DNA of 12,191 nucleotides from Myxococcota bacterium (GTDB lineage: Bacteria > Myxococcota > JACRCW01): contig JBFMGU010000306.1 in the NCBI GenBank assembly GCA_040752415.1, positions 1 to 12,191 of the forward strand. Reading direction: 5' to 3'. The first letter of the stretch is position 1, and the number at the start of each line of letters is the position of its first letter. The notes below the pieces were generated by a model that saw only the letters and a list, made by a program, of their open reading frames with translations, was not told the DNA's origin and did no database searches. Below are positions 103 through 12,191 of the stretch, piece by piece. A program made the translations under genes and the position numbers.

Positions 103-2898
103 ATGCTGCGCAACTTCTTCTTCGCGTTGATCGTCGTGTGCGCGTCCCACGACGTGGTCCTGGCGGAGGAGCCCGCGACCACCGGCACGCTGCGCGGCAC
201 CGTGGTGTCCACCCAGGGCGGCAAGCCCGTGGCGGGTGCCTGGGTGGTGGTGCAGGGCTCGGAGGCCAACGCGCAAACCGACGAGAACGGGCGCTTCGAG
301 CTCGCGCTCGCTCCCGGTCGTCACACCCTCAGCATCCTGCACATGGACTTTGGAACGCAGGACGTGGAGACGGTGGAGATCGTCGTCGGGGAGGTGGCGG
401 AGATGCGCGTGGAGCTCACGCCGGCTGCGCCGCAGCAGGACACGCTCACCACCGAGGCGGAAGCCTTTGCCGTGGAGGCCGCGCCGCCCCCGCCTTTTGC
501 CGAGAAGAAGCCCATGGGTGAGACGGTGACCGAGACCATCTCCGCCGCGGAGGTCTCTCGCGCGGGAGATTCCGACGCCGCCAGCGCGCTCCGACGCGTC
601 ACCGGTCTGACGCTGGTAGGCGGGCGCTACATCTACGTGCGCGGCCTGGGTGAGCGTTACTCCAGCACGCTGCTCAACGGTGCCACGCTGCCCAGCCCGG
701 AGCCGGAGCGTCGCGTGGTGCCGCTGGACCTCATTCCCTCCGCCGTCATCGAGGAGATGGTGATCCACAAGACCTACTCCCCGGAGCTTCCCGCGGAGTT
801 CGGCGGCGGCACCATTGCGCTGCGCACACGGGGCATCCCCGAGGAGTTCACCCTCAAGCTCAACGCCACCTCGGGCTATCGCGCGGGCACCACCTTCGAG
901 CGTGGGCTCACCTACCACGGCGGCCGCCTGGACGTGCTGGGCGTGGACGACGGCACGCGCGCGCTTCCCACCGACGTCGACCGCGCCTCCAGCAGCCAGC
1001 CCCTGCTCGAGCGCGACCAGTTCTCCACGCGCGGCTACACCGCCGGTGAGCTCGAGGTGTTTGGTGAGCGCATGCCCAACATCTGGAACACCGAACGTGC
1101 CGTGACGCCTCCCAACCTGGGTGTCTCCGGCGTGCTGGGCGACCAGTTGTGCCTGGGCCCGGTGGTGTTGGGTTTCCTCGCCGCGACGTCGTTTGACCAC
1201 GAGTGGGCCACGGTGAAGCGCAAACGGAAATACCTGGTGCTGGGCCAGAACGAGCAGCTCGAGGTGGCGCACGACTACGACTTCGAGACCAACGAGCACA
1301 ACATCGGGCTGGGCGGCGTGGCCACGGTGGGCGCCAGCATCCTGGATCACCACCTCATCACCTTCACCACGCTGCTCAACCGCGCCACCACCGACGAGGC
1401 GCGCGTCTACCAGGGCCTCAACCGCGACGTGGGCACGGACATCCGCGTCACCCGGCTGGCCTGGGTGGAACGCCAGCTCATGGCACAGCAGCTCACCGGC
1501 ACCCACGTCTTCCCCGTGCTCTGGGACGCGCGGCTGGACTGGCGTTACACCTACGCGCAGGCCACACGGAAGGAGCCGGACCGTCGTGAGGTCCGCTACG
1601 ACCACGAGCCCGGCACCAGCCGCTGGCTGCTCTCCGACCGCCCCGAGGGCAACCAGCGCCTCTACAGCGACCTGCTCGAGCACAACCACGACACCGGCCT
1701 GGACGCGCAGCTCCCCATCCCGCTCTTCGACGGGTACCGCCTGACGGTGCGCTCCGGCGCCATGATCAACTGGCGCACGCGACAGGTGGACACGCGGCGC
1801 TTCAAGTACCAGCACAAGGGCGCGCGCAGCGGCAACTCCGACGTCATCAGCCGTCCCCCCGAGGAGATCTTCACCAGCGAGAACATCGGCGGGGACGGTT
1901 TCCAGCTCGAGGAGGTGACGCGCCAGACCGACAACTACAACGCCACGCAGGTGCTGGTGGCCAGCTACCTGGGCCTGGACTTCCCGCTCTCGCGCGCGTG
2001 GCGCGTCAGCACCGGGTTGCGCGCGGAGTATGCGCTGCAGAAGGTCCGCACCTATGAGCTGTTCAATCCCGACGGAAAACCGGTGGAGTCCCGGCTGGAA
2101 GGCGTGGACTTCCTGCCCGCCACCACCGTCACCTGGCAGCTGCTGGACAACATGATGGTCCAGGGCGCGGCGGGCATCAGTGTCTCCCGCCCGGATTTCC
2201 GCGAGCTTTCCCCGGCCACCTACAACGACGTCACCGGCGGTCGACAGGTCTTCGGCAACCCCGACCTCGAGCGCGCGCTGATTGGCAGCGGGGACCTGCG
2301 CTGGGAGTGGCACCCGGCGCACGCCATGGTGGCGCTCTCGCTCTTCTACAAACACTTCCACAAGCCCATTGAGCAGGTGGTGAAGCCGGGCGCGCAGCAG
2401 TCCATCAGCTACGCCAACGCCAAGAGCGCCGACAACGTGGGTCTCGAGGCGGAATTCAAGCTGCGCTACGGCATCATCCACGAGAGCCTGGACCCGCTGT
2501 ACTTCGCGGTGAACGGCGCGGTGATCCACTCGCAGGTGGAGCTGGACGGCAACAGCGGCATCCAGACGTCACGACGTCGCGCGCTGCAGGGACAGAGCCC
2601 GTACGTCTTCAACGCGCAGCTCGGCTATGACGACCCGCGCACCAGCACCAACGTGGCGTTCGTCTACAACGTGCAGGGTCCGCGCATCGTGGAAGCCGGA
2701 GCGCTGGGCATTCCCGACGTGTACGAGCAGCCGGTGCACCAGGTTGACGTCGTGGCGAGCAAGAAGCTGCCCATGGGGCTGGTGCTCAGTCTCAAGGCGC
2801 AGAACCTGGTGGACCAACCCGTGACGTTCACGCAGGGCGGGCAGGTGGTGGAGAGCTTCCGCCGTGGTCGCGCTGTGGTGGTGGGCGTGGGGATGTGA
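103..2898 (+). CDS. TonB-dependent outer-membrane receptor/transporter with N-terminal carboxypeptidase-regulatory-like (SusC-type) extension, 931 aa
   Basis: ORF 52..2898. ATG at 103 gives a signal peptide (MLRNFFFALIVVCASHDVVLA|EE), so it is preferred to 52. N-terminal domain GTLRGTVV..G.PVAGAWV....A.TDENGRFEL.L.PGRHTL; plug motifs DAASALRRVTG and YVRGLGERYSSTLLNG..LPSPEPERRVVPLDLIPS..IE; beta-barrel motifs SRPDFRELSP, GNPDL, LFYKHF..PIE, LQGQSPY..N and LSLKAQNLVD. Directly upstream of tonB-exbB-exbD. Confidence 0.93.
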   Translation: MLRNFFFALIVVCASHDVVLAEEPATTGTLRGTVVSTQGGKPVAGAWVVVQGSEANAQTDENGRFELALAPGRHTLSILHMDFGTQDVETVEIVVGEVAEMRVELTPAAPQQDTLTTEAEAFAVEAAPPPPFAEKKPMGETVTETISAAEVSRAGDSDAASALRRVTGLTLVGGRYIYVRGLGERYSSTLLNGATLPSPEPERRVVPLDLIPSAVIEEMVIHKTYSPELPAEFGGGTIALRTRGIPEEFTLKLNATSGYRAGTTFERGLTYHGGRLDVLGVDDGTRALPTDVDRASSSQPLLERDQFSTRGYTAGELEVFGERMPNIWNTERAVTPPNLGVSGVLGDQLCLGPVVLGFLAATSFDHEWATVKRKRKYLVLGQNEQLEVAHDYDFETNEHNIGLGGVATVGASILDHHLITFTTLLNRATTDEARVYQGLNRDVGTDIRVTRLAWVERQLMAQQLTGTHVFPVLWDARLDWRYTYAQATRKEPDRREVRYDHEPGTSRWLLSDRPEGNQRLYSDLLEHNHDTGLDAQLPIPLFDGYRLTVRSGAMINWRTRQVDTRRFKYQHKGARSGNSDVISRPPEEIFTSENIGGDGFQLEEVTRQTDNYNATQVLVASYLGLDFPLSRAWRVSTGLRAEYALQKVRTYELFNPDGKPVESRLEGVDFLPATTVTWQLLDNMMVQGAAGISVSRPDFRELSPATYNDVTGGRQVFGNPDLERALIGSGDLRWEWHPAHAMVALSLFYKHFHKPIEQVVKPGAQQSISYANAKSADNVGLEAEFKLRYGIIHESLDPLYFAVNGAVIHSQVELDGNSGIQTSRRRALQGQSPYVFNAQLGYDDPRTSTNVAFVYNVQGPRIVEAGALGIPDVYEQPVHQVDVVASKKLPMGLVLSLKAQNLVDQPVTFTQGGQVVESFRRGRAVVVGVGM

Positions 2899-2907
2899 GG
2901 AGGCGAG

Positions 2908-3780
2908 ATGTTCCGCGCATTCGCACCTGAAACACCGTGGTACCGCAGCCCCGCCGACAAGGCGCGCGCGCTGCTGGCCCACCTGGAGCCCGGCGAGCAC
3001 GGACCGCTGCCGCCCGGCATGTTCGGCGGATTCCATCGTCGTGCTTCGCGCGTGTGGAAGTCGCGCTCGCTGCTCGTGACGGGCTCGGTGCTCTGTCACG
3101 GCGGACTGGCGCTGAGCTTCCTCACCAACCACCCCCCGCCCGAGCCGCCGCCGCCTCCGTCGGTGCCGGTGCTGCTCTACCAGGCGCCGCCGCCGCCACC
3201 TCCGCCGCCACCGCCACCCGCCGCCACCGTCAGCAAGCCGCGCGTGAAACCCATCCGCACGCCCTCCGTGCGCCCCGAGCTCACCGTGCCCAAGAAGGAG
3301 CCGGAGAAGCCCGCGGAGCCCGCGCCCGAACCGGAGCCCGAGGCCGCGGAGCCCGAGCCCGCGGGAGAGCCCGGTGGCGTCGTGGGCGGTGTGGCGGGTG
3401 GCGTCGTCGGTGGCGTGGTGGGGGGACAGCTGGGCGGGCAGTTGCCGCCCAAGAAGGAACCACCGCCCAAACCCGCGCCGGTGGCGGCGAAGGCGGTGCG
3501 TCGCAGCGGAGAGGTGCGCCAGGCGCGACTGCTGCACCGCGTGGAGCCGGTCTATCCCCAGCAGGCCCGCACGGCGCGCACGGAGGGACGTGTGGTCCTG
3601 ATGTTGATCGTCGACGCGTCGGGGCGCGTGACCGATGCGCGCGTGCTCTCGGGTCCCACGTTGCTGGCCCAGGCGGCCAAGCAGGCAGTGCTGCAGTGGC
3701 GCTTTGATCCGGGCCGCAATGGCGACGGAAACGCAGTGATTTCCCAGATTCTCCAACCCATTGATTTCAGGTTGCGCTGA
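2908..3780 (+). CDS. tonB: Energy transducer TonB family protein
   Basis: RBS GGAGG at 2899-2903. Single TM with S-x3-H (SVLCH), Pro-rich linker (PPPPPP, PEPEPE), GGVVGGVAGGVVGGVVGG repeat, and C-terminal TonB domain (PVYPQQARTARTEGRVVL...VDASGRV...AV.QWRFDP...IDFRL). Confidence 0.92.
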   Translation: MFRAFAPETPWYRSPADKARALLAHLEPGEHGPLPPGMFGGFHRRASRVWKSRSLLVTGSVLCHGGLALSFLTNHPPPEPPPPPSVPVLLYQAPPPPPPPPPPPAATVSKPRVKPIRTPSVRPELTVPKKEPEKPAEPAPEPEPEAAEPEPAGEPGGVVGGVAGGVVGGVVGGQLGGQLPPKKEPPPKPAPVAAKAVRRSGEVRQARLLHRVEPVYPQQARTARTEGRVVLMLIVDASGRVTDARVLSGPTLLAQAAKQAVLQWRFDPGRNGDGNAVISQILQPIDFRLR

Positions 3781-3792
3781 GAGGAGAGGAAC

Positions 3793-4515
3793 ATGACTTT
3801 CGAGTGGACGGAAATCTGGGCCCACATGGGCCTGGTGGCGCGCGCGGTGCTCTTCACGCTGGTGTTCATGAGCATCTGGAGCGCGGTGATCGTCGTGGAG
3901 CGGATGTGGCGGCTGCGCAGCGTGGCGCGCACCAGCACCGAGTTCAGCCTCAAGGCGCAGCAGTGGCTGCGGGAGCGCCGGTTTCCGCAGCTGCTGCAGG
4001 CGGAGCAGGAGTACGCGCGCAGTCCGCTGTTCACCGTCGTGGGCGGGGCGGTGCGGGAGTACCTGGAAGGCCTGGAGGCGCAGGCGGTGGGCGACTCCTA
4101 CGACGTCATTGAAGCCGCGCAGCGCTCCGTGGAGCGGAACATCGAGCTGGAGGTCAACCGGCTGCGCAAGGGGCTGGGCGGACTGGCGTCCATCAGCTCG
4201 TCGGCGCCGTTCGTGGGTCTGTTCGGCACCACCTTTGGCATCATCAACAGCTTCCGCGCCATCGGTGTGAGCGGTCAGGGCGACCTTGCCACCGTGGCCC
4301 CAGGCATCGCGGAGGCGCTCATCACCACGGCGGTGGGCATCTTCGTGGCGCTGCCCGCGGTGTGGTTCTTCAACTACCTGATGGGCCGTGTCGACGGGCT
4401 GGGCGCGGACCTGCGCCACGCCGGCAGCGAGGTGGTGGACTTCCTCATCAAGGACATCGGCCGCCACCAGCGTCGTCCGTTCTCCACCGCGCAAGCCGAG
4501 CGGGCGGCGGCATGA
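3793..4515 (+). CDS. exbB: MotA/TolQ/ExbB proton channel family protein
   Basis: RBS GAGGAGAGG upstream. Three TM segments with signature motifs LASISSSAPFVGLFGTTFGII..F and VAPGIAEALITTAVGIFVALPAV..FN. Confidence 0.93.
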   Translation: MTFEWTEIWAHMGLVARAVLFTLVFMSIWSAVIVVERMWRLRSVARTSTEFSLKAQQWLRERRFPQLLQAEQEYARSPLFTVVGGAVREYLEGLEAQAVGDSYDVIEAAQRSVERNIELEVNRLRKGLGGLASISSSAPFVGLFGTTFGIINSFRAIGVSGQGDLATVAPGIAEALITTAVGIFVALPAVWFFNYLMGRVDGLGADLRHAGSEVVDFLIKDIGRHQRRPFSTAQAERAAA

Positions 4516-4934
4516 GCCACGGTCCCTCCCTCGGCGGCGGGCTCAAGGCGGAGCTCAATGTCACCCCGCTCGTCGACGTGGTGCTGGTGCTGCTCATCAT
4601 CTTCATGGTGGTGACGCCCATGATGCACAAGGGTCCCGCCGTGGAGCTGCCGCGCGCGGGCACCTCCGAGAAGTCGCAGCCCGGTGGTGGCGCGCCCATG
4701 GTGCTGTCGGTGACGCGCGAGCAAAGGCTCTTCCTCGGTGACGACGAGGTGGACCTCCCGCAGCTCACCGCGCGCATCCGGGCGCACCTGGGTGCCAATC
4801 CCAACGCGGAGGTGGTGGTGCAGGGAGACCGTCGACTGAGGTTCAAGCACGTGCAGCAGGTGTTGGACGCGTGCAGCGCGGCGGGCGCGCGCCGCCTGGC
4901 AGTGGCGACGCAGGAAGCGAAGAAGGGGTCGTGA
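4512..4934 (+). CDS. exbD: Biopolymer transporter ExbD/TolR family protein (copy 1), 140 aa
   Basis: ATG at 4512 overlaps the exbB stop (ATGA), so it is preferred to the track start at 4362. Signature AELNVTPLVDVVLVLLIIFMVVTP with the essential Asp; periplasmic domain VVVQGDRRL.F..V.QVLD....AG. Confidence 0.92.
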   Translation: MSHGPSLGGGLKAELNVTPLVDVVLVLLIIFMVVTPMMHKGPAVELPRAGTSEKSQPGGGAPMVLSVTREQRLFLGDDEVDLPQLTARIRAHLGANPNAEVVVQGDRRLRFKHVQQVLDACSAAGARRLAVATQEAKKGS

Positions 4935-5032
4935 GATGCAGGTGCCTTCCGGTCGTTCCGTGCAGGCGGAGCTCAATGTCACGCCAATGATCGACGTGGT
5001 GCTGGTGCTGCTCATCATCTTCATGGTGGTGA
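4546..5032 (+). repeat. Direct repeat between the two exbD TM-coding segments (4546-4614 vs 4964-5032)
   Basis: By hand, 64/69 nt are identical, including a perfect 42-nt block (4573-4614 = 4991-5032) and a perfect 19-nt block (4546-4564 = 4964-4982). Confidence 0.8.
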
Positions 5033-5364
5033 GCCCCAAGCGCGACCAGCAGGTGCCGGTGGTGGTTCCGCAGGAAGCCCCCGCCGACGAGCCCGCGCCT
5101 CCCTCCACCACGCCGCCGTTGGTGGTGGCGGTGGCGGAGGATGGTGCGCTTTCCGTCAATGGGACCGCGTTGACGTCGGTGGACGGATTGCCGGCCGCGC
5201 TGGAGAAGGAGGTGGGCACGCGCGCGGAGAAGGTGGTGTTCCTGGGCGCGCACCCGGAGGCGCCGTTCGAGCGCGTCGTCGACGTGATGGACGTGGCACG
5301 CAAGGCCGGCGCGAAACACGTGGGCCTCATCAAGGAGCTGCCCAAGCCCGCCGGCGGGACGTGA
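4936..5364 (+). CDS. exbD: Biopolymer transporter ExbD/TolR family protein (copy 2)
   Basis: Starts 1 nt after the exbD1 stop. Signature AELNVTPMIDVVLVLLIIFMVVSP; C-terminal VFLGAHPEAPFERVVDVMDVARKAGAKHVGL. Confidence 0.92.
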   Translation: MQVPSGRSVQAELNVTPMIDVVLVLLIIFMVVSPKRDQQVPVVVPQEAPADEPAPPSTTPPLVVAVAEDGALSVNGTALTSVDGLPAALEKEVGTRAEKVVFLGAHPEAPFERVVDVMDVARKAGAKHVGLIKELPKPAGGT

Positions 5365-5368
5365 GCGC

Positions 5369-6688
5369 TTAGTTCGGATTCGTCAGGCCCAGCTTGTCCA
5401 GGATGAACCCGTCGGGCATCTCCTGCGGGACCAGAACCAGCCGCTCCACGCCCAGCGTGCGCATCAGGAACTCGACGAGCACCGGGCCGCCGGTGGCCTT
5501 GGGGCCATACGCGTTCCACGCCTCGGTGTTGTTGCGGAGCGCGTCAAACGTCGTTCGGTCCGCGAACATGGCCTGCATCGCCATCGCGTCGGCCAGCGTG
5601 ACGGAGCCGGTGATGATGCCGTAGTTGTCATCCACCTGGCGCTCGCGCTTCAGCTGCTCCATCAGGCCCAGGTACGTTGCGCGGTCGACCCAGTTTCCCC
5701 CGGGATTCAGCTTCCCCTGCCGCAGCAGGAGCGACGACCCGTCTTCCCCCAGCGCGATGATGGCGCGCTCCACGCGCTGGGCCTGGATGTCGTTCTGCAA
5801 CGTCGTCACGAAAGCGGCGGAGGTGTCGTTGGGACTCGCGGCGTCGGGGGGAGTGGCGTCTACGAACGCGGTGGCGAGCGCATCGAGGAACGAGTCTCGT
5901 GCCGAGTCGTAGGTCGCGTGGACGAAGGCCGACGTGTCGTTCTTCTTGGCGAAGTGGTCCGCAGCGGCCTGGCGATAACCGAGCTCCCAGCTCCGCGGCA
6001 GCACGTCGGTGCCACCCAGCGGCCAATAGGAAATCTGGAAGCTGCTGGACCCGGCATCCATGGCAATCATGCCCGGACGACCGCGCGTGGCGGCCCAGTA
6101 CCCGTAGCGTCCCTCGAGACCGCCCGGGATGACGGACGCCTCCACGCCCGTGGCGCCGCGCAATGTCGCCAGGATGTCGTTGGCATTGGGTGCACGCCGT
6201 CCCCACGACGTGGCCACGCCGCCAACCACCTCACCACCGTCTGCCGCGCACTGGTCCACCAGGATTCTGGTGAACTCCACGAGCTCGTCGACGGCGGTTT
6301 CCGGCACCGGCGGATAGGCCGGCGGATTGCTGCCAGAGATGGGGTTGCGCACGTGGTCGCCGAGGTTGAGCTGCACCTTGCAGAAGCGTTCTCCCCTCAA
6401 GCTGAGCCGGTCCCCAGGCACAATGGAATCCACCACGAGCTTGAGGTTGCTGCTGCCGATGTCGATGGCGCAGTGATGCTGGCGCCCGGATTGGGGCGTG
6501 ACGCTCGTCGTGAGCGGGATGTCGCAGTTGATGGATTTGGAGGTGGTGTTGGAGCCGGCGCCGGGGCCGCCGCCCTGGTTGGACGTGCTGCTGCCGCTGT
6601 CGCCACGGAGCGGGACGCACCCGGTGAACGCAAGGGCCATCAGCGCGCCAGCAGTGACACGCTTCCCGGACAGAGAAGAGGGCTTCAT
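5369..6688 (-). CDS. Predicted lipoprotein with a divergent Ppx/GppA (ASKHA, actin-like) phosphatase fold and no HD domain, 439 aa
   Basis: ATG at 6688 has an RBS (AAGGTG) and gives a type II signal peptide MKPSSLSGKRVTAGALMALAFTG|C followed by a Ser/Gly linker. ASKHA motifs appear in order: AIDIGSSNLKLVV, VATSWGRRAPNA, VIPGGLEGRYGY (catalytic Glu position), MDAGSSSFQIS, and C-terminal GGPVLVEFLMRTLGVERLVLVPQEMPDG. Confidence 0.78.
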   Translation of the reverse strand: MKPSSLSGKRVTAGALMALAFTGCVPLRGDSGSSTSNQGGGPGAGSNTTSKSINCDIPLTTSVTPQSGRQHHCAIDIGSSNLKLVVDSIVPGDRLSLRGERFCKVQLNLGDHVRNPISGSNPPAYPPVPETAVDELVEFTRILVDQCAADGGEVVGGVATSWGRRAPNANDILATLRGATGVEASVIPGGLEGRYGYWAATRGRPGMIAMDAGSSSFQISYWPLGGTDVLPRSWELGYRQAAADHFAKKNDTSAFVHATYDSARDSFLDALATAFVDATPPDAASPNDTSAAFVTTLQNDIQAQRVERAIIALGEDGSSLLLRQGKLNPGGNWVDRATYLGLMEQLKRERQVDDNYGIITGSVTLADAMAMQAMFADRTTFDALRNNTEAWNAYGPKATGGPVLVEFLMRTLGVERLVLVPQEMPDGFILDKLGLTNPN

Positions 6689-6955
6689 GTTCACCTTCGT
6701 GTTGGGAGGCTGATGGCGTCCGGCGGCGACGTCGGGAGAAGCATTGCCTCCCGCCCGCCATGAGGGAGCGACCTCAGCGCAGGGGTGGTGGTCGGTGATA
6801 GCGTCGCTGCCGTTCACGCACCGTCGGCGCCACGCATTGTTCACACGAGCTCATCCGGAATCCACGTCACAACGGCGACCGTGAAGCGCGGAACGAGGTC
6901 GCTTCCTTCAGCACATTGGAGGCTGCGCCAGGAAGAGATTGCCCGTTGCTTCGCC

Positions 6956-7186
6956 AACGTCGTGAGCGGACCACACCCTGGAGTGCGGCGGCCTGTCGCC
7001 GCCCTGGCCAGCGCCGAGTGGGTCCTCCGCGGCCGACAGCGGAACCCTGGCGGTCCCCGCGACGGAAAACCGACGACGACTGGGTCTCCCTCGGGCGGTG
7101 GACCATGAACCGGCGTGCAACCGCGCGGCGCTGGCCAGGGCGGCGAGGGCCCGCCGCACTCCAGGGTGTGGTCCGCTCACGACGTT
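6956..7186. repeat. Long inverted repeat (61-bp arms, 109-bp spacer); REP-doublet/REPIN-like or MITE-like element
   Basis: 6956-7016 and the reverse complement of 7126-7186 are identical at 58/61 positions. Each arm contains GGAGT followed by the hairpin GCGGCGG-N4-TCGCCGC (6985-7002), and all 3 mismatches lie in the 4-nt loop. Weaker complementarity extends to about 6941/7202. Confidence 0.85.
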
Positions 7187-7224
7187 CCCGAACCCAATGG
7201 GCCCTTTGTTCGCTGACCACCCGC

Positions 7225-8838
7225 TTACCGACGCTGCCGCGCACGCCCCCGCGCCGGCTCATCCACCACCGCGCGGAAACGCAGCTTGTGCCGGAACACC
7301 TTCTCGAACAGCTCGGCCTTCTCGCTGGCGGCCCAGACCTCCATGTCGGGCGCCGCGCTGGCGGTGATACTGACCACCACTTCGTCGTCGGTGATGGACA
7401 CCTTGAGCTGGTTCACCAGGTGGTGATGGCTGCGGTCCAGGGCCGCCGACACGCGCAGCAACGCCGCCAGCGTGCGCACGCGCTTGCGGTCATTGCGCGC
7501 CAACACCGCCCACTCCGGGTGATGCGACCCCGGTCGACCCTTGCGGTGGTAGCGCGTGATCGCCGCCAGGCGCAGGCGTCCCGCGTCGGAGAAACCGGGC
7601 AGCTCGCTGTTGGCAATCAGGTACGCGCCGTGGAGGTGGTGCCGGTCATAGGAGACAAAGTGGCCGAGGTCGTGCAGCAGCGCGGCCACCTCCAGCTCGC
7701 AGCGTGCGTCGTCGCCCAGCTCATGCAGCGCGCGGGTCCCCTCGAAGAGGCTGCACGCCAGCGCGGCCACCTGGGACGCGTGCGGCTCGTCTACCTGGTA
7801 GCGCCGCGCCAGCGCCAACGCGCCCTCCACGCGCACGCGCTCCGGCTCGGTGGGGAACGGCAGCGCCATGCCCAGGCTCTCCACCGCCTCCATCAGGAGC
7901 CCCTCCTTGAGCCCGCGCCCGGTCACCTCCACCGTCTTCGCCCCGACGGTGCGCGCCACTTCCAGCAACGCCAGGCCCCCGCCCACGATGATGTCCGCCC
8001 GACGAGGATCCAGGTGCGGCAAGGCGCGACGCTTGACCATGGGCAGCTTCGCCATGCGCTCCACCACCTCCTCCATCTCGTCGAGGTCGATGGCCGGCGG
8101 GCCCTTGCCGCCGCTGGCCACCTGCCAGAGCGCCTGGATGGTGCCCGCGGTCCCCAGCACGCGCGCCTTGGAGCCCGCGCTGAAGGTGAGCACGCTGCGC
8201 GCCGTGGCCCGGGCATGCGCGCGCAACAGCTCCATCTCCGTGGCGGTGGGCGGGTCGGTGCGCAGGAACATCTCGGAGAGGCGCACCGCGCCCAGCTTGA
8301 GGCTGGCCACGTCGGTGATGACGCCGTCGGTGGCGCGCGCAACCTCCACGCTGCCCCCGCCCACGTCCAGCACCACGATGTCCCCCGCGGCATCCGGCAG
8401 GCCCGCCAGCACGCCGCGCGCAATCAGCCGCGCCTCCTCGCGCCCGGTGAGGATCTGCAGGTCCACGCCGGTGAGCTCCCGGATGCGCTGGATGAACAAC
8501 CCCGCGTCCTCCGCCTCCCGCAGCGCGCACGTTCCCCGTGCATGGAGCCGCTGCACGCCCCGCGCGCGCGCCACCGCGGTGAGTCTTCGCATGGCCTGCG
8601 CGGCGCGCTCGGCCGCCAGCGCGTTGAGCTGCCCGGTCTGGAAGACGGCCTCGCCCAGGCGCACCGGCTCGCGCTCCTCCGCCAGCACGCGCGGCGGCAG
8701 GCCGGGCACGTATTCCGCCACCACCAGGCGGACGCTGTTGGATCCCAGGTCAATGACGCCAACAGTGGGGCCACCGCCGGGTTGCGTGGCGCGCTCGGTG
8801 GGAAAGCTGGGGGCGAGGCTGAGGGTGGGTCGGGACAT
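7225..8838 (-). CDS. ppx: Exopolyphosphatase / guanosine pentaphosphate phosphohydrolase (Ppx/GppA) with C-terminal HD domain, 537 aa
   Basis: RBS AGGAG before ATG 8838. Motifs VIDLGSNSVRLVV, GTCALREA, ILTGREEARLI, LDVGGGSVE, GTAGT, RRADIIVGG and GLKEGLL; HD domain HASQVA, AALLHDLG...HHLHGAYLI...LPGF, RYHRK, LLR...ALDRSH. Confidence 0.93.
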   Translation of the reverse strand: MSRPTLSLAPSFPTERATQPGGGPTVGVIDLGSNSVRLVVAEYVPGLPPRVLAEEREPVRLGEAVFQTGQLNALAAERAAQAMRRLTAVARARGVQRLHARGTCALREAEDAGLFIQRIRELTGVDLQILTGREEARLIARGVLAGLPDAAGDIVVLDVGGGSVEVARATDGVITDVASLKLGAVRLSEMFLRTDPPTATEMELLRAHARATARSVLTFSAGSKARVLGTAGTIQALWQVASGGKGPPAIDLDEMEEVVERMAKLPMVKRRALPHLDPRRADIIVGGGLALLEVARTVGAKTVEVTGRGLKEGLLMEAVESLGMALPFPTEPERVRVEGALALARRYQVDEPHASQVAALACSLFEGTRALHELGDDARCELEVAALLHDLGHFVSYDRHHLHGAYLIANSELPGFSDAGRLRLAAITRYHRKGRPGSHHPEWAVLARNDRKRVRTLAALLRVSAALDRSHHHLVNQLKVSITDDEVVVSITASAAPDMEVWAASEKAELFEKVFRHKLRFRAVVDEPARGRARQRR

Positions 8839-9014
8839 GGGCGGCTCCTGGCACCGTGCGGCGCTTGTCCACGCGGGGGCGCGCAGCATGTGCGTGGTTG
8901 GAGCAACGGGTCAGCGCCCAGGCGCATGCCCGCGCCCACGCATCCCTCGCTCCGTGCGGACGGAAGAACGGTGGGTGGCGCGGGTGAACCCCGGCGGGGA
9001 AGGACGTGGAACGG

Positions 9015-9761
9015 TCAGAGCGCGGCGTGCTCGACGTTCTCGTCGGGAGCGTGCGCGGGCCAGGTGCCCGTCACCAGGTAGCTCTTCAGCGGCTCAAAGC
9101 TCCTGCGGTGATGCACCGTGGGTCCGTGCGCGCGCAGCGCCGCCAGGTGCTCGGCGGTGGCGTAGCCCTTGTGGCGCGCGAAGCCGTAGGCGGGCAGCTC
9201 CACGTCGAGCGTGCGCAGCATCTCGTCGCGGTGCTCCTTGGCCAGGATGCTGGCCGCGGCCACCGCCGCGCAGGTGGCATCTCCGTCGACGAGCGGGCGC
9301 TGCAGACCGCGCCAGTTGGGGATGCACTCCCGCCCATCCACCACCACCAGGCAGCTCTGCCCTCCCGCCATGGCCACCGCCGCGGTCACCGCGCGATGCA
9401 TGGCCAGCAGCGAGGCGGGCAGGATCCCCAGCGTGTCAATCTCCTCGACGCTGCAGGCGGCCACCGCGTGCCCCAGCGCCGCCGCGCGGATGGGCGCCAG
9501 CAGCTCGGCGCGTTGCTCGTGCGTGAGGATCTTGCTGTCGGCCACCTTGGGAAAACGCTGGCCCACGGAGACCACCACCGCGCCGGCCACCACCGGCCCC
9601 GCCAAGGGACCGCGCCCCACCTCGTCGACGCCGCACAGCAGCTCCAGCTCGGCGGAGCGCGCCCAACGGATGCCCGGGTCGGAGCGGGTGACGGTCAACA
9701 CGCCGCCCAGCGTCAGCTGCTTGGGACGCGCGCGGGCCTTCGCCTTCCGCACCTTGCTCAT
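9015..9761 (-). CDS. rnhB: Ribonuclease HII, 248 aa
   Basis: Motifs GVDEVGRGPLAGPVVAGAV, DSK, EIDTLGI..A...AM.RA, VVDG, GDATC..VAAASILAK..RD, YGFARHKGYAT..H and HHRRSF. ATG at 9761 overlaps the upstream stop (ATGA, 9758-9761); the track's longer N-terminus overlaps the upstream gene out of frame. Confidence 0.95.
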   Translation of the reverse strand: MSKVRKAKARARPKQLTLGGVLTVTRSDPGIRWARSAELELLCGVDEVGRGPLAGPVVAGAVVVSVGQRFPKVADSKILTHEQRAELLAPIRAAALGHAVAACSVEEIDTLGILPASLLAMHRAVTAAVAMAGGQSCLVVVDGRECIPNWRGLQRPLVDGDATCAAVAAASILAKEHRDEMLRTLDVELPAYGFARHKGYATAEHLAALRAHGPTVHHRRSFEPLKSYLVTGTWPAHAPDENVEHAAL

Positions 9762-11992
9762 AGCTGGATGCTCGGGTCCGCCCCTTCCGCCAGCGTGGGC
9801 TTGGGACAGAAGTGCACCACCTGGCAGATGGAGCCCAGGAACTGGATCATCTTGGCCAGCAGCGGGTGCTTCACGTCGGGGATGGTGGCAAACCAGCTGT
9901 CCATCACCGCCGGCGTGGGCTGCTTGCGGCCAAACGTCTCGATGATGGTCATCTTCACGCTGAGGTACGCCAGGTCCTGGTCCTGCGGCGACATGGTGGC
10001 GAACGGCGTGGGCTTTCCCGCCGCGTCGATGGCGGCCAGGTCCCCGGTGTCGGTGAAGGTCACCGAGGCGTAGCGACGGTCGCTCAGCGCGGTGAGGTAC
10101 TGGCTGGTGCGCGGCTGCAAGAGCGTCCCCACCTGCTCCATGGGGAGATGGAAGAGGTCCAGCGCGGCCTTCATCATCTGCACCACCGCGTCCGCGCCGC
10201 CGCCCGGCGGGCCCGCGAAGCCCGGCGGGAAGCCAAAGCCACCCGGCATGCCCGGCGCGGGGAAGCCTCCGGTGGGCGGTCCGCCCGAGCCCACGGCCCA
10301 CCGCGGCTCGCCGTGCCCGTCGGGGTCCACCATGGCGTACGGCGCCTCGTCGTCGTCCCCGTGGTAACCGCTCAGCCGTCCGCCGCCCACCCCGCCGCCG
10401 CTGGTCACCGGGCCGCCGTAGCCGCGGTCGTAGCCCAGCGTGCCACCGGCCCCGCCCGCCTCCCCGCCCAGCTCCGCCTCCAACTGCTTCTCCTCCTCGA
10501 GGAGGTCGCGCTCGTTGCCGCTGAAGCCCATGGACTGCAGCTTGGCCTCCAGGTCCGCCTGCCGCGACATCAGCGCCGCGAACTCCTCCGGCTTGGCCCC
10601 CGGCCCGATGGCCGCCTGCGCCGCCTCCAGCTCCCGCTGCTTCTCCTCCAGGATGCGGCGCTTCTCGTCGCGCTGCAGCACCTGGTCGCGGAAGGCGTCC
10701 AGCTCCTTGGCGTCCTTGATGTCGAACTCCGCCAGGATGCGACGCGTGTTGCTGGTGTCCAGGTCAAACCGGCGCTGCGCCTTCTCCTTCTTCTCCGCCG
10801 CGCCCTTGGCGTTGCCCTGCAGGTCGGAGCGCTCCTCGAGGAGGTTGATGTACTGCAGCAGCGAGTAGGCCACCGCGCCCAGCCCCACGAGGTGCAGGAA
10901 CGCGAAGTAGCGCCAGCCCGGTCCCGAGGCCATGGCGCCGCCCACCGCCACCAGCAGCGCCACCACCGTCCCGCCCAGGCCGCCCAGGAACACCTTGTCC
11001 TTGTAGACCGGGGGGATCTCCAGGTTGTGCGCGCGGGTCAGCGCGTTGCGAGCCTCCTCGTCCGCCTTCTTGAAGTCGTCGTGGAGGGCGTGGAGCTGCT
11101 TCTCGTAGAGGTCCAGCTGGCGCAGCACGTCGGGGGGCAGCTTCTCCAGGTGCTCGAAGACCCGCAGCGCCTCGGCGGCCTCCGCCACCGCGGTCTCCAC
11201 GCCCTTCAGCGGGCGCAGCGCCTCCTCCAGCTCAAAGCGACGACGCTGCACGCCGTCCAGCTCGAACTCCAGCTCCTGCTGCACCTTGAGGTTCTTCAGC
11301 GCGCCCTTCACCGCCGCCAGGCGCTGCTGCTTCTCGGCGGTGCTCAGGTGCGCGAAGTTGAGCTTGCCCGGCTGCGGCGGCTGCGGCGCGCCCGGCATCC
11401 CCGGCATCCCCGGCGCCATGCCCGGCATCATCCCCGGCATCATGGTCATCATGCCGGTCATCCCGGGCACCATGCCCGGCACCATCCCCGGCATCATGGT
11501 CATCATGCCGGTCATCCCGGGCACCATGCCCATGGGCGCGGCGCGACGGGACGGAAGCTCCGCGGCGGGCGAGGCGAAGATCTTCACGAACGCGTCGGTG
11601 GGCGGGAGACCCAGCTGCGTCTTGAGGAGCTGCGCCACCTCCTGCGGGTTGGAGCTCACCAGGTCAAAGGCGTTGCTGCCGTCGGGGCGCGCGCGGTGCA
11701 GGGCGTAGGCGCCGCTCTTGAGGTCGTGGATGAGGCGGTAGGTGGCGCCGTCGCGGCCCTTGATGGTGGCGCCCACGCGGGAGGCCGGCGCGGCGGGGTC
11801 CACCACGCGCTCCGCGTAGGAGCGGGCCGGGTCAAAGGTCAGCAGGCCGCGGACGGCGTCGGCCAGGATGGCCAGGCGCGCGCCGCTGGGATCCTTGGCG
11901 TCCAGCAGGGCGTTGTTGCCGGCGCCCAGGCCAATCCGTCGCTGCTCGGGGAACTGCTTGATCCCCTGAACCACCAATTCGACCACTTGCAT
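9758..11992 (-). CDS. SMC/Rad50/YhaN-like coiled-coil protein with central TM hairpin and degenerate split ABC-ATPase head, 744 aa
   Basis: The N-terminus MQVVELVVQGIKQF...I.L..G.N.L matches the first strands of Rad50/SbcC-type heads. Two coiled coils flank two hydrophobic helices (VFLGGLGGTVVALLVAVGGAMA; YFAFLHLVGLGAVAYSLLQYI). The C-terminus YLTALSDRRY...MSPQDQDLAYLSVK...PAVMDSWF...QVVHF aligns with the YhaN-type C-terminal head (LS.G..DQ.YLA.R...P.ILDDPF...Q.I.FT). Confidence 0.7.
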   Translation of the reverse strand: MQVVELVVQGIKQFPEQRRIGLGAGNNALLDAKDPSGARLAILADAVRGLLTFDPARSYAERVVDPAAPASRVGATIKGRDGATYRLIHDLKSGAYALHRARPDGSNAFDLVSSNPQEVAQLLKTQLGLPPTDAFVKIFASPAAELPSRRAAPMGMVPGMTGMMTMMPGMVPGMVPGMTGMMTMMPGMMPGMAPGMPGMPGAPQPPQPGKLNFAHLSTAEKQQRLAAVKGALKNLKVQQELEFELDGVQRRRFELEEALRPLKGVETAVAEAAEALRVFEHLEKLPPDVLRQLDLYEKQLHALHDDFKKADEEARNALTRAHNLEIPPVYKDKVFLGGLGGTVVALLVAVGGAMASGPGWRYFAFLHLVGLGAVAYSLLQYINLLEERSDLQGNAKGAAEKKEKAQRRFDLDTSNTRRILAEFDIKDAKELDAFRDQVLQRDEKRRILEEKQRELEAAQAAIGPGAKPEEFAALMSRQADLEAKLQSMGFSGNERDLLEEEKQLEAELGGEAGGAGGTLGYDRGYGGPVTSGGGVGGGRLSGYHGDDDEAPYAMVDPDGHGEPRWAVGSGGPPTGGFPAPGMPGGFGFPPGFAGPPGGGADAVVQMMKAALDLFHLPMEQVGTLLQPRTSQYLTALSDRRYASVTFTDTGDLAAIDAAGKPTPFATMSPQDQDLAYLSVKMTIIETFGRKQPTPAVMDSWFATIPDVKHPLLAKMIQFLGSICQVVHFCPKPTLAEGADPSIQL
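11416..11531. repeat. 54-bp in-frame tandem duplication (about 2.15 copies) encoding a Met/Gly/Pro-rich repeat
   Basis: 11416-11469 and 11470-11523 are identical at 53/54 positions, with a partial third copy to 11531. Encodes GMVPGMTGMMTMMPGM(V/M)P twice and is followed by PGM repeats. Confidence 0.9.
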
Positions 11993-12029
11993 GGGCCGGA
12001 CCCCGAAGCACGCAGAAACGTCGCGGCTC

Positions 12030-12059
12030 ACCGTAGGGTTGGCCCGCGAGCGGGGTCAA
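12030..12059 (-). promoter_or_regulatory. Candidate sigma70-type promoter for the SMC-like gene/rnhB unit
   Basis: The minus strand reads TTGACC (12059-12054), an 18-nt spacer, then TACGGT (12035-12030), about 40 nt upstream of ATG 11992 within the intergenic gap. Confidence 0.4.
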
Positions 12060-12074: not shown

Positions 12075-12191
12075 CTATTTCCCGCCGTGACCTCCCTTTT
12101 TCTGCACCGGCTTCTGCTGCGGCTTGGTGTTCTGCGCGGGCTTGTTGGGCTGGGCAGGCTGGGGCGAGGGCTGGGCCCGGGCGGGGCTGCT
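12075..12191 (-). CDS. 3' end of an upstream gene (partial; Pro/Gln/Lys-rich tail), product unknown
   Basis: Open minus-strand frame from the window edge: SSPARAQPSPQPAQPNKPAQNTKPQQKPVQKKGGHGGK*, stop TAG at 12077-12075, mostly G/C-ending codons. Confidence 0.55.
   Translation of the reverse strand, partial: SSPARAQPSPQPAQPNKPAQNTKPQQKPVQKKGGHGGK

Follow-up and report, generated by a model that had tools for sequence, protein, structure and literature searches.

In the pairs ElpS-CC0171, Fjoh_0545/Fjoh_0546 (PUSIV), and BT4055/BT4056, the gene for a TonB-dependent transporter (TBDT) adjoins that for a lipoprotein (the lid) of about 450 amino acids with a pectin-lyase-type fold. In Caulobacter, ElpS is induced by phosphate (Pi) starvation and adjoins the TBDT CC0171 (PMC2996285). 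In Flavobacterium, the phoBR cluster includes Fjoh_0545 and Fjoh_0546, a lipoprotein of pectin-lyase fold, both induced by Pi starvation; the Pfam make-up of Fjoh_0545 is PF07715, PF13715, and PF14905 (PMC8115612, Table 1). Conservation of the BT4055/4056 pair spans 621 genera (bioRxiv 10.1101/2023.03.17.533168).

The PUS clusters of Flavobacterium (PusCD) bring together a TBDT, a lipoprotein of the cell surface, and a phosphohydrolase of the envelope; these clusters are co-expressed and encode phosphomono- and diesterases (PMC8115612). The locus analyzed here, on a 12,191-nt stretch of Myxococcota DNA (the window), combines the same kinds of parts, but its hydrolase is of the Ppx type, is encoded convergently, and is no conserved neighbor of the transporter. 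The Myxococcus xanthus cluster MXAN_0272-0276 holds the same set of transport genes as the window (a TBDT, two ExbD, ExbB, and TonB) in a different order (PMC6434023); in the window, the Ton genes follow the TBDT gene.

Gene content and upstream extension of the window

The window contains the following features.

1-26, no strand: sequence shared with the end of C8, another contig of this assembly (exact 26-nt suffix/prefix match)
103-2898, + strand: TBDT with an N-terminal CarboxypepD_reg domain (alternative start at 52; Pfam PF13620, PF07715, PF00593, and PF14905)
2908-3780, + strand: TonB (TonB_C, 62.3 bits)
3793-4515, + strand: ExbB (MotA_ExbB, 107.4 bits)
4512-4934, + strand: ExbD, copy 1 (ExbD, 91.3 bits; its start overlaps the exbB stop)
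4936-5364, + strand: ExbD, copy 2 (ExbD, 82.6 bits)
5369-6688, - strand: exported Ppx-fold lipoprotein of 439 aa (lipobox LAFTGC; PF02541; converges with exbD)
6950-7192, no strand: palindromic multicopy repeat (MITE/REP-like) between ppx and the Ppx-fold lipoprotein gene
7225-8838, - strand: cytoplasmic long-form Ppx/GppA with domain III and HD (alternative start at 8889)

The TBDT scored 54 bits for CarboxypepD_reg, 35.3 for Plug, 70.7 for TonB_dep_Rec_b-barrel, and 53.5 for OMP_b-brl_3. The family model TIGR01782 (TonB-Xanth-Caul) reached 188.8 bits, under its cut-off of 310, and the sequence had no match among PDB chains at an E value of 1e-3. A preliminary description of this DNA had given the TBDT its own tonB-exbB-exbD-exbD module, which our analysis bears out: all of the genes are present in one tightly packed operon (intergenic spacing of -4 to 13 nt), and the TonB_C, MotA_ExbB, and ExbD domains of the energizer all exceed their cut-offs. 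It had also let the TBDT end 4 bp from a lipoprotein with a Ppx/GppA fold. The distance (4 nt, 5365 to 5368, between convergent stop codons) and the fold are real, but the neighboring gene is the second exbD, not the TBDT gene. As its caveat said, the two halves are convergent and do not form one operon. Scans for sigma-70 promoters and intrinsic terminators between 5200 and 7400 found none.

The 26-mer at the start of the window occurs only at C8:35391-35416 and C231:1-26 in the whole genome. This unique overlap means that the locus extends beyond the window: genes for a PhoB-like response regulator and a beta-helix lipoprotein immediately precede the TBDT gene. At the other end, past position 12191, the last 31 or 22 nt of the contig were found on no other contig. 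The joined gene order is PhoB-like response regulator, beta-helix lipoprotein, TBDT, TonB, ExbB, ExbD, ExbD; the lipoprotein gene, at the end of C8, lies about 130 nt upstream of the TBDT gene and is itself preceded by the regulator gene at a distance of 129 nt.

The upstream lipoprotein belongs to PF28492 (Beta_helix_4). Its predicted model (pLDDT of 88.4) gave weak Foldseek matches (E values of 2e-3 and up), and all those listed except 9j4l and 9j4i (inulin fructotransferases) are structures that we take to be right-handed beta-helix folds. Given the contig join, the Pfam match, and the model, the TBDT gene adjoins a lipoprotein gene of predicted pectin-lyase-type beta-helix fold. Compared by fold and arrangement, this pair resembles ElpS-CC0171, Fjoh_0545/0546, and BT4055/BT4056, and the TBDT matches PF07715, PF13715, and PF14905, the set of Fjoh_0545. 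A PhoB-type regulator adjacent to the pair is a further likeness to F. johnsoniae. Unlike the described pairs, the Myxococcota pair brings its own TonB-ExbB-ExbD genes.

Distribution and partners of the TBDT

An orthologue of the TBDT was present as a single copy in 123 of 301 sampled Myxococcota genomes; in one complete 9.0-Mb genome, it lies at 0.36 Mb. Of 20 loci, 17 have Ton genes beside the orthologue and 13 have the beta-helix lipoprotein there, as do all three further genomes inspected for it (G402, G404, and G405). The Ppx-fold lipoprotein was found at none of the 20 loci, and nearly all TBDT-bearing genomes have the TBDT without it. The ElpS/BT4056-type pair is now extended to Myxococcota, where it comes with a dedicated Ton system and recurrent phosphate-gene neighbors (see below). 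The phylum also offers genetically tractable relatives in which to search for the cargo, such as the MXAN_0272 cluster of M. xanthus.

Phosphate genes and regulatory sites near the TBDT

Of 36 other genomes, 4 carry phoU/phoR/phoB, ppk-ppx, ppx, or PhoX no more than 10 kb away from the TBDT, where 0.55 to 0.63 would be expected (P of ~2e-3 to 4e-3, with marker families picked after the first matches had been seen and some of the genomes being kin). In G081, the TBDT has phoU (192.9 bits; cut-off, 130), accompanied by a phoR-like and a phoB-like gene, at a distance of 2 kb. In G283, His_Phos_1, ppk1, and ppx follow directly downstream, and phoU lies 9.3 kb upstream. A ppx gene is found at 5 kb in G026 and PhoX at 3.1 kb in G057; in G405, PhoX lies 12.7 kb from the beta-helix lipoprotein. 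Weaker neighbors (PAP2, Metallophos, and purple-acid-phosphatase-like genes) occur at three more loci. In the other 32 genomes, the surroundings of the TBDT lack any such marker; these include all 10 of family f11, in which ppk lies 280 to 440 kb away.

The response regulator next to the lid gene had PhoB as its best model. Its score of 233.0 bits ties with that of the phoU-adjacent regulator (233.7), with the other eight regulators at 206.6 or less; both counted against the phosphate link, we note that 233 bits is under the PhoB cut-off of 296.2 and that the sites described next are inverted repeats, whereas the classical Pho box consists of direct repeats. The pattern TGTCAY-N5-TGACAY occurs twice in the 129-nt gap before the beta-helix lipoprotein gene and four times in 477 kb overall, compared to 0.3 in shuffles; one of the two other copies lies upstream of phoB in G081. 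With one mismatch allowed, the pattern is noise across loci (18 matches versus 9.7 in shuffles). We dropped the match at locus L137, one of the four, as a regulatory site because it falls inside a GT87 coding sequence, probably by chance. The window itself has no Pho-like site with up to one mismatch, so there is none before the Ppx-fold lipoprotein gene. A literature search on a Myxococcus Pho regulon with TonB gave nothing relevant among the matches listed.

By sequence and by analogy, the TBDT module appears tied to phosphate supply. The phosphorus link of the earlier interpretation is supported for this module (through the adjacent PhoB-like regulator, the four genomes, and the likeness to Pi-starvation pairs), but a conserved three-part system is not, given how rarely this TBDT accompanies the Ppx-fold lipoprotein elsewhere.

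We give about an even chance to the reading that most of a phosphate-linked unit for outer-membrane uptake lies in the window, next to an unrelated, thematically similar gene. Such a unit would act in the manner of ElpS/CC0171, Fjoh_0545/0546, and BT4055/4056. The beta-helix lid would capture or process a phosphorus-bearing substrate at the cell surface, and the TBDT, driven by its own Ton complex, would then move it into the periplasm; we infer that expression would rise under phosphate shortage. The convergent Ppx-fold lipoprotein gene would stand alone and be no conserved part of the unit.

The strongest competitor, which we rate as rather unlikely, is that the TBDT-lid-Ton unit imports a glycan, a peptide, or another non-phosphorus cargo and that the Ppx-fold lipoprotein and ppx are merely adjacent. 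The cargo could be a glycan because, in G405, an alpha-L-fucosidase gene comes next to the pair on its downstream side and because the fold of the lid is one of glycan enzymes (pectate-lyase- or polygalacturonase-like, as predicted by the model). The many genomes without a phosphate marker fit this view, as do the unrelated genes that surround the Ppx-fold lipoprotein elsewhere. In addition, deletion of the M. xanthus TBDT MXAN_0272, probably the orthologue, caused neither a developmental nor a PopC-secretion phenotype (PMC6434023). A non-phosphorus cargo fits poorly with the surplus of pho, ppk, ppx, and phoX genes near the TBDT and with the PhoB-like regulator in the window's own genome. The Pi-starvation induction of the same kind of pair in Caulobacter and Flavobacterium (PMC2996285, PMC8115612) also argues against it.

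Fold, motifs, and export of the Ppx-fold lipoprotein

Sequence models barely recognize the lipoprotein: PF02541 (Ppx-GppA) just cleared its cut-off of 27 bits (28.4, within residues 155 to 222 only), and TIGR03706 scored 37.2 bits, far under its cut-off of 307. A profile of the lipoprotein family nevertheless found 1t6d among PDB sequences (E value of 6.6e-14), and the AF2 model (pLDDT of 83.8) matched the same entry in Foldseek (E value of 6.6e-17). VIA-align superposed the model on the Aquifex Ppx/GppA with a Z score of 25.7 and an rmsd of 3.1 A (291 of 303 residues aligned). At the level of the predicted structure, this confirms a real two-domain Ppx/GppA (ASKHA) fold.

The DxG[SG]xS motif is kept in all 21 near relatives. 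G78, S79, R164, E192, D211, G213, and S216 are invariant among the 21 members and the window's own Ppx, and D76 is nearly so. As in the short-form Ppx/GppA of Aquifex aeolicus (PDB 1T6C/1T6D; PF02541), the two-domain ASKHA core carries the phosphate-binding loops DxGS and DxGxxS and the catalytic Glu (E192). Unlike that enzyme, with which it shares 15 to 18% identity, the lipoprotein has helical insertions and a Gly/Ser-rich tether on which it would be exported, and its Pfam and NCBIfam scores are at or below cut-offs. It also differs in four Cys that are nearly invariant in the family and absent from the cytoplasmic Ppx, and in the second acidic residue of the phosphate-2 motif (GGGSxE), which is Gln (Q218) in 20 of 21 members and Glu in the window's cytoplasmic Ppx.

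A lipobox-like motif was found in 16 of 21 relatives, and the +2 residue of the window's protein is Val; Lys at +2 marks inner-membrane lipoproteins in M. xanthus (PMC3222651). By these signals the lipoprotein is exported, with the outer membrane as its probable destination. As to activity and substrate, we infer that it most likely splits the phosphoanhydride bonds of polyphosphate or of nucleoside polyphosphates in the extracytoplasmic space. The best reading is that of a rare, exported Myxococcota hydrolase of such bonds, encoded by a gene that stands alone. Among the 12 matches listed of 14 in our literature search, none concerned an exported or periplasmic exopolyphosphatase lipoprotein.

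Ppx/GppA enzymes are regarded as cytoplasmic. An exported, disulfide-bearing branch with intact catalytic residues would widen the sites of bacterial phosphoanhydride hydrolysis, a picture that also takes in a sister branch without catalytic residues, and it would be a candidate route to the use of environmental polyphosphate.

NTPDases also carry Gln at the phosphate-2 motif position, and a PDB entry of Legionella NTPDase1 Q193E implies that Gln there was deemed worth mutating. Like the GDA1/CD39 NTPDases (Legionella Lp1NTPDase and rat NTPDase1/2), the lipoprotein would be an extracytoplasmic ASKHA phosphohydrolase with conserved Cys and likely disulfides, and NTPDases were the second-best structural class (Z scores of 18 to 19.8). 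That it is an NTPDase-like ecto-nucleotidase, with ATP/ADP or other nucleotides outside the cell as its substrate in place of polyphosphate and with no dependence on the TBDT, is nevertheless very improbable: most Ppx/GppA structures scored clearly higher (Z scores of 21.2 to 25.7 in 19 of 21 entries, with two Deinococcus radiodurans entries at 19.1 to 19.3, inside the NTPDase range), sequence profiles yielded only Ppx/GppA, and Pfam gave no GDA1_CD39 (PF01150) match at E values up to 0.01.

Association between the TBDT and the Ppx-fold lipoprotein

The preliminary description had joined the parts into one "polyphosphate utilization locus," in which the TBDT would import polyphosphate or nucleoside polyphosphates, the lipoprotein would hydrolyze them in the envelope, and handling of the internal pool would fall to the cytoplasmic Ppx. 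The three parts do lie within 9 kb with convergent ends all but touching, the TBDT family is phosphate-linked (with ppk-ppx or ppx beside it in G283 and G026), and the lipoprotein is exported with its catalytic residues kept. In G402, moreover, one of three lipoprotein paralogues is found 9.5 kb from the single TBDT orthologue.

Against this integrated locus, this TBDT lies within 10 kb of the lipoprotein gene at only 1 of 22 other loci (~7% by chance), and exbB, exbD, ppx, ppk, phoU, and phoX were found near none of the 22. The lipoprotein profile detected the family in 1 of 401 sampled genomes of the phylum (within one order, 11 of 89 had it), a spread far from that of the TBDT; among the sequences searched, the family is confined to Myxococcota. 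G401 and G403 have the lipoprotein and no TBDT orthologue at an E value of 1e-20. The genes are convergent, a repeat element splits ppx from the lipoprotein gene, and the TBDT is already paired with its own conserved lipoprotein. Finally, our literature search found no papers on polyphosphate uptake via a TBDT. We consider the integrated locus improbable.

In the neighborhood comparison proposed earlier, the TBDT subfamily shows phosphate neighbors in a minority of genomes, the lipoprotein homologues show this TBDT once and none of the phosphate or Ton genes named above, and a conserved PUL-like unit of transporter plus hydrolase does not emerge. Because the TBDT unit and the lipoprotein are no conserved team, a dedicated polyphosphate-feeding system is only a possibility. 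Its boldest form is that Myxococcota hold an uncharacterized family of extracytoplasmic exopolyphosphatases, one member of which, together with a PhoB-controlled ElpS-type TBDT unit, here harvests polyphosphate or nucleoside polyphosphates, for instance from lysed prey. This we hold to be improbable; if true, it would be the first bacterial polyphosphate utilization locus.

A TBDT gene 1.3 kb from the closest lipoprotein homologue (L011) was left uncounted, as it is of another type and fused to TonB_C. It was also rejected as an orthologue: the window TBDT gives no tblastn match there, and G401 has no orthologue at the threshold above.

The cytoplasmic ppx gene and the repeat element

The cytoplasmic Ppx, which would be a housekeeping gene product, scored 191.5 bits for PF02541, 105 for PF21447, and 31.6 for HD; TIGR03706 gave 241.8 bits, below the cut-off of 307. 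The lipoprotein had been described as directly downstream of a full cytoplasmic ppx. The gene with its domain III and HD regions is indeed present, but a gap of 536 nt, which holds the repeat, intervenes. Rfam at gathering thresholds gave no match in the window, the repeat included. The repeat is inverted, with 83-nt arms that are 86% complementary, has 96 matches in the genome (both strands counted), and folds as RNA with a z-score of -12.6.

Gene content of the window

The locus most likely combines an ElpS-type TBDT unit linked to phosphate with a stand-alone exported phosphoanhydride hydrolase of an uncharacterised family, and its cytoplasmic ppx is most likely a housekeeping neighbour. 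The preliminary description had tentatively joined the TBDT, the exported Ppx-fold lipoprotein, and the cytoplasmic Ppx into one polyphosphate utilisation locus; as a conserved entity, this three-part system was unsupported. The partnership between the lipoprotein and the TBDT unit is not conserved.

The window is the whole of contig C231 (12,191 bp; GC content of 67-74%) in an assembly of 11.0 Mb (520 contigs; 96.8% complete). Gene calls and domain matches bore out the adjacency claimed for the TBDT/Ton genes, the lipoprotein gene, and ppx. Five closely packed genes occupy the plus strand (TBDT, tonB, exbB, exbD, exbD), and the minus strand is transcribed in the order 757-aa protein, rnhB, ppx, a 536-nt gap, and lipoprotein gene.

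103-2898 (+), TBDT with CarboxypepD_reg, Plug, TonB_dep_Rec_b-barrel, and OMP_b-brl_3 domains
2908-3780 (+), tonB
3793-4515 (+), exbB
4512-4934 (+), first exbD
4936-5364 (+), second exbD
6688-5369 (-), Ppx-fold lipoprotein gene
6950-7192, palindromic repeat element (83-nt arms, 86% complementary, 77-nt centre)
8838-7225 (-), cytoplasmic long-form Ppx/GppA with domain III and HD
ending at 9015 (-), rnhB (NF000595, 211.8 bits, above the cut-off)
12031-9758 (-), 757-aa protein with no Pfam or NCBIfam match

The top NCBIfam model for the TBDT was TIGR01782 (TonB-Xanth-Caul; 188.8 bits, below the cut-off). The stop codons of the second exbD and the lipoprotein gene are 4 nt apart. The 757-aa ORF at 9758-12031 (-) contains PGM/MPGM repeat runs and long charged, coiled-coil-like stretches, and its stop codon and the likely rnhB start are about 3 nt apart.

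The lipoprotein gene had been placed directly downstream of ppx. It does lie downstream on the same strand, but the gap means that it does not follow directly. The palindromic element within this gap had 96 matches in the same genome (70-95% identity, both strands counted) and is thus multi-copy; it belongs to no Rfam family and looks like a MITE/REP-like family. Because this element separates the two genes, their co-transcription is doubtful.

Fold, distribution, and export of the Ppx lipoprotein

The Ppx-fold assignment of the lipoprotein was right. Its AF2 model (pLDDT 83.8) consists of a two-domain Ppx/GppA core with insertions, behind a disordered tether formed by the N-terminal 50 residues. 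The VIA comparison gave a Z score of 25.7 to the Aquifex Ppx/GppA. Of the 21 Ppx/GppA entries, 19 scored 21.2-25.7 and two, from Deinococcus radiodurans, 19.1-19.3, versus at most 19.8 for NTPDases. Near relatives (21 compared) retain the DxGS loop, R164, the catalytic Glu (E192), and the DxG[SG]xS loop, all of which align with the window's own Ppx. The exported protein is probably active as a phosphoanhydride hydrolase. Gln (Q218) replaces a Glu of Ppx in 20 of 21 members, and four nearly invariant Cys residues are missing from the cytoplasmic Ppx. A lipobox-like motif was present in 16 of 21 members (crude pattern), and the N terminus of the mature protein (residues 25-439), CVPLRGD, does not have the +2 Lys that typifies Myxococcus xanthus inner-membrane lipoproteins (PMC3222651).

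The family is rare. A word-indexed search returned 6 clusters among 5.8 billion, the query itself counted. A profile search run exhaustively over 50%-identity representatives yielded 42 at an E value of 1e-30 or better and 130 at 1e-10 or better, the weaker part of the latter being ordinary Ppx aligned over the N-terminal half only. Among 401 sampled genomes of the phylum, only the source genome carried the lipoprotein; in the order of genome G402, it occurred in 11 of 89 genomes, which have as many as five paralogues each (22 places in total). A distant sister branch (P0033-P0101; 19 representatives) has lost DxGS and DxGxxS, keeps the phosphate-2 motif in none of the 19, and carries, behind the lipobox, an additional N-terminal module rich in Cys (about 10); its members are probably non-catalytic lipoproteins. 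Full-text literature searches retrieved neither a paper describing an exported Ppx-type lipoprotein nor one reporting TBDT-mediated uptake of polyphosphate.

Elsewhere in the source genome, contig C1 encodes a short, 391-aa Ppx-like protein (L003:1306-2481, +; PF02541, 89 bits) with GGGSFQ instead of GGGSxE and no evident signal peptide when read from the called start.

Genomic context of lipoprotein homologues

All 22 other genomic places of the lipoprotein family were examined (5 first found plus 17 further). A TBDT orthologue lay within 10 kb at one of them (G402), 9.5 kb away with unrelated genes between; the chance of at least one such co-location in 22 places is about 7%. exbB, exbD, ppx, ppk, phoU, and phoX were found at 0 of 22, so the gene-neighbourhood check spoke against a conserved partnership. 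For 14 of the 17 further loci, 72 neighbouring genes were scanned with Pfam, separately from those of the first five, and revealed no phosphate theme, and five short metagenome contigs with the family added nothing. At L162, one TonB_C-domain ORF lies 2.3 kb from the lipoprotein gene.

Genome G401, which carries the closest homologue (61% identity), and G403, which also has the family, contained no TBDT orthologue at 1e-20. The TBDT adjoining the closest homologue (L011:12497-15244) has an N-terminal TonB_C fused to CarboxypepD_reg, Plug, and barrel domains and is of a different type from that in the window; an Orn/DAP/Arg decarboxylase gene precedes it.

At one other locus (L154, genome G486), rnhB lies 5.6 kb from the lipoprotein gene, compared to 2.3 kb in the window. 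This recurrence hints that, historically, the lipoprotein goes with rnhB rather than with the TBDT part of the locus. Peptidase_M50 genes adjoin lipoprotein paralogues at two loci (L154:8309-9079 and L161:8632-9393).

Conservation of the TBDT unit and its upstream region

One TBDT orthologue per genome was detected in 123 of 301 sampled Myxococcota genomes (E value of 1e-30 or better; the source genome and the unpublished G195 included). In 20 orthologous loci taken for comparison, TonB, ExbB, or ExbD genes adjoined the TBDT at 17 and a beta-helix lipoprotein was present at 13, with the Ppx-fold lipoprotein at none. The closest orthologues belong to a larger Ton cluster (lipoprotein, DUF3450, large ExbB, ExbB, ExbD, TonB, TPR protein, TBDT), a Ttp-like arrangement upstream of the TBDT (L121-L126 and L139) with a 460-510-aa ExbB-like protein in L121, L122, and L139. 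The source genome instead has the simple TonB-ExbB-ExbD-ExbD set downstream (2908-5364), and more distant orthologues, including those of f11, the largest family sampled (probably Myxococcaceae), show the order TonB, ExbB, ExbD, ExbD, TBDT, lipoprotein. This one TBDT family has thus recruited different energisers.

The sole beta-helix lipoprotein gene of the source genome lies at the extreme end of contig C8. The last 26 nt of C8 are identical to the first 26 nt of the window, and this 26-mer occurs at those two sites only in the genome. The joined order is OmpR/PhoB-family regulator, 129-nt gap, beta-helix lipoprotein, about 130 nt, TBDT, TonB, ExbB, ExbD, ExbD.

C8:32985-35359 (L152:17486-19860), PhoB-like response regulator and beta-helix lipoprotein, directly upstream of the TBDT after the join; the regulator occupies C8:33189-33860
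L152:18417-18433 and 18460-18476 (C8), two TGTCAY-N5-TGACAY inverted repeats in the 129-nt gap

The lipoprotein has 445 aa and the lipobox LGAC; a GC-rich hairpin lies 3' of its stop codon. The regulator's top NCBIfam model was PhoB (232-233 bits, below the cut-off of 296.2), level in the genome-wide ranking with a regulator 5.7 kb from phoU (233.7 bits); the eight other response regulators listed scored at most 206.6 bits, under both. The paired repeats (43 nt apart) lie where AT content is higher and are candidate binding sites of this regulator. As inverted repeats, they do not qualify as a classical Pho box. Across 477 kb of fetched loci, the pattern occurred 4 times versus 0.3 in shuffles. 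Of the two copies outside the gap, one is a direct repeat that precedes phoB in G081 by about 190 nt, and the other falls within a GT87 coding sequence and is probably due to chance.

Phosphate genes near the TBDT

Phosphate genes lay near the TBDT in several genomes: in G081, phoU (above the cut-off) 2 kb away, together with phoR-like and phoB-like genes; His_Phos_1, ppk1, and ppx directly downstream, with phoU 9.3 kb upstream, in G283; ppx at 5 kb in G026; and the genome's sole full-length PhoX at 3.1 kb in G057. When PhoU, PP_kinase, Ppx-GppA, and PhoX were located genome-wide, a marker lay within 10 kb of the TBDT in 4 of 36 genomes versus about 0.55-0.63 expected (binomial P of about 2-4e-3, with marker families picked after the first matches were seen and two genome pairs sharing a genus). 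No marker lay within 10 kb in the other 32, among them all ten f11 genomes (ppk is 280-440 kb distant there). Weaker neighbours included PAP2, Metallophos, a purple-acid-phosphatase-like protein, and a protein with only a PhoB-like C-terminal domain. In G405, PhoX lies 12.7 kb from the lipoprotein. The unit as a whole is conserved, and its recurrent neighbours suggest a link to phosphate. The idea of a transporter for phosphorus acquisition thereby gained independent support, from these genes and the PhoB-like regulator; the results point to no particular cargo.

Probable kinship of the TBDT-lid module

The beta-helix partner (lid) falls into PF28492 (Beta_helix_4), with at least 7480 relatives at an E value of 1e-10 or better. 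Its model (pLDDT 88.4) gave weak structural matches (E values from 2e-3), nearly all to what we take to be right-handed beta-helix folds (tailspikes, PL6 lyases, polygalacturonases).

The TBDT-lid module is probably of a known kind, a membership based on fold class, gene pairing, and TBDT architecture. In a Caulobacter study, the lipoprotein ElpS (CC0170) is phosphate-starvation induced, secreted, and raises extracellular phosphatase activity, and elpS adjoins the TBDT gene CC0171 (PMC2996285). A Flavobacterium johnsoniae study describes the TBDT Fjoh_0545 and the pectin-lyase-fold lipoprotein Fjoh_0546, both strongly Pi-induced, beside phoB and phoR; such clusters are termed phosphate utilisation systems there, and the window TBDT shares the three Pfam families of Fjoh_0545 (PMC8115612). 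A preprint unites BT4056, Fjoh_0546, and ElpS in one family of TBDT "lids," adjacent to their own TBDT in 621 genera (10.1101/2023.03.17.533168). The TBDT of the M. xanthus MXAN_0272-0276 cluster, which probably has the lid lipoprotein gene downstream, is probably an orthologue of the window TBDT. Its deletion caused no developmental or PopC phenotype (PMC6434023), and a predation study names two TBDT genes, this one included, that did not share the induction of the iron-uptake genes during predation (PMC10196010).
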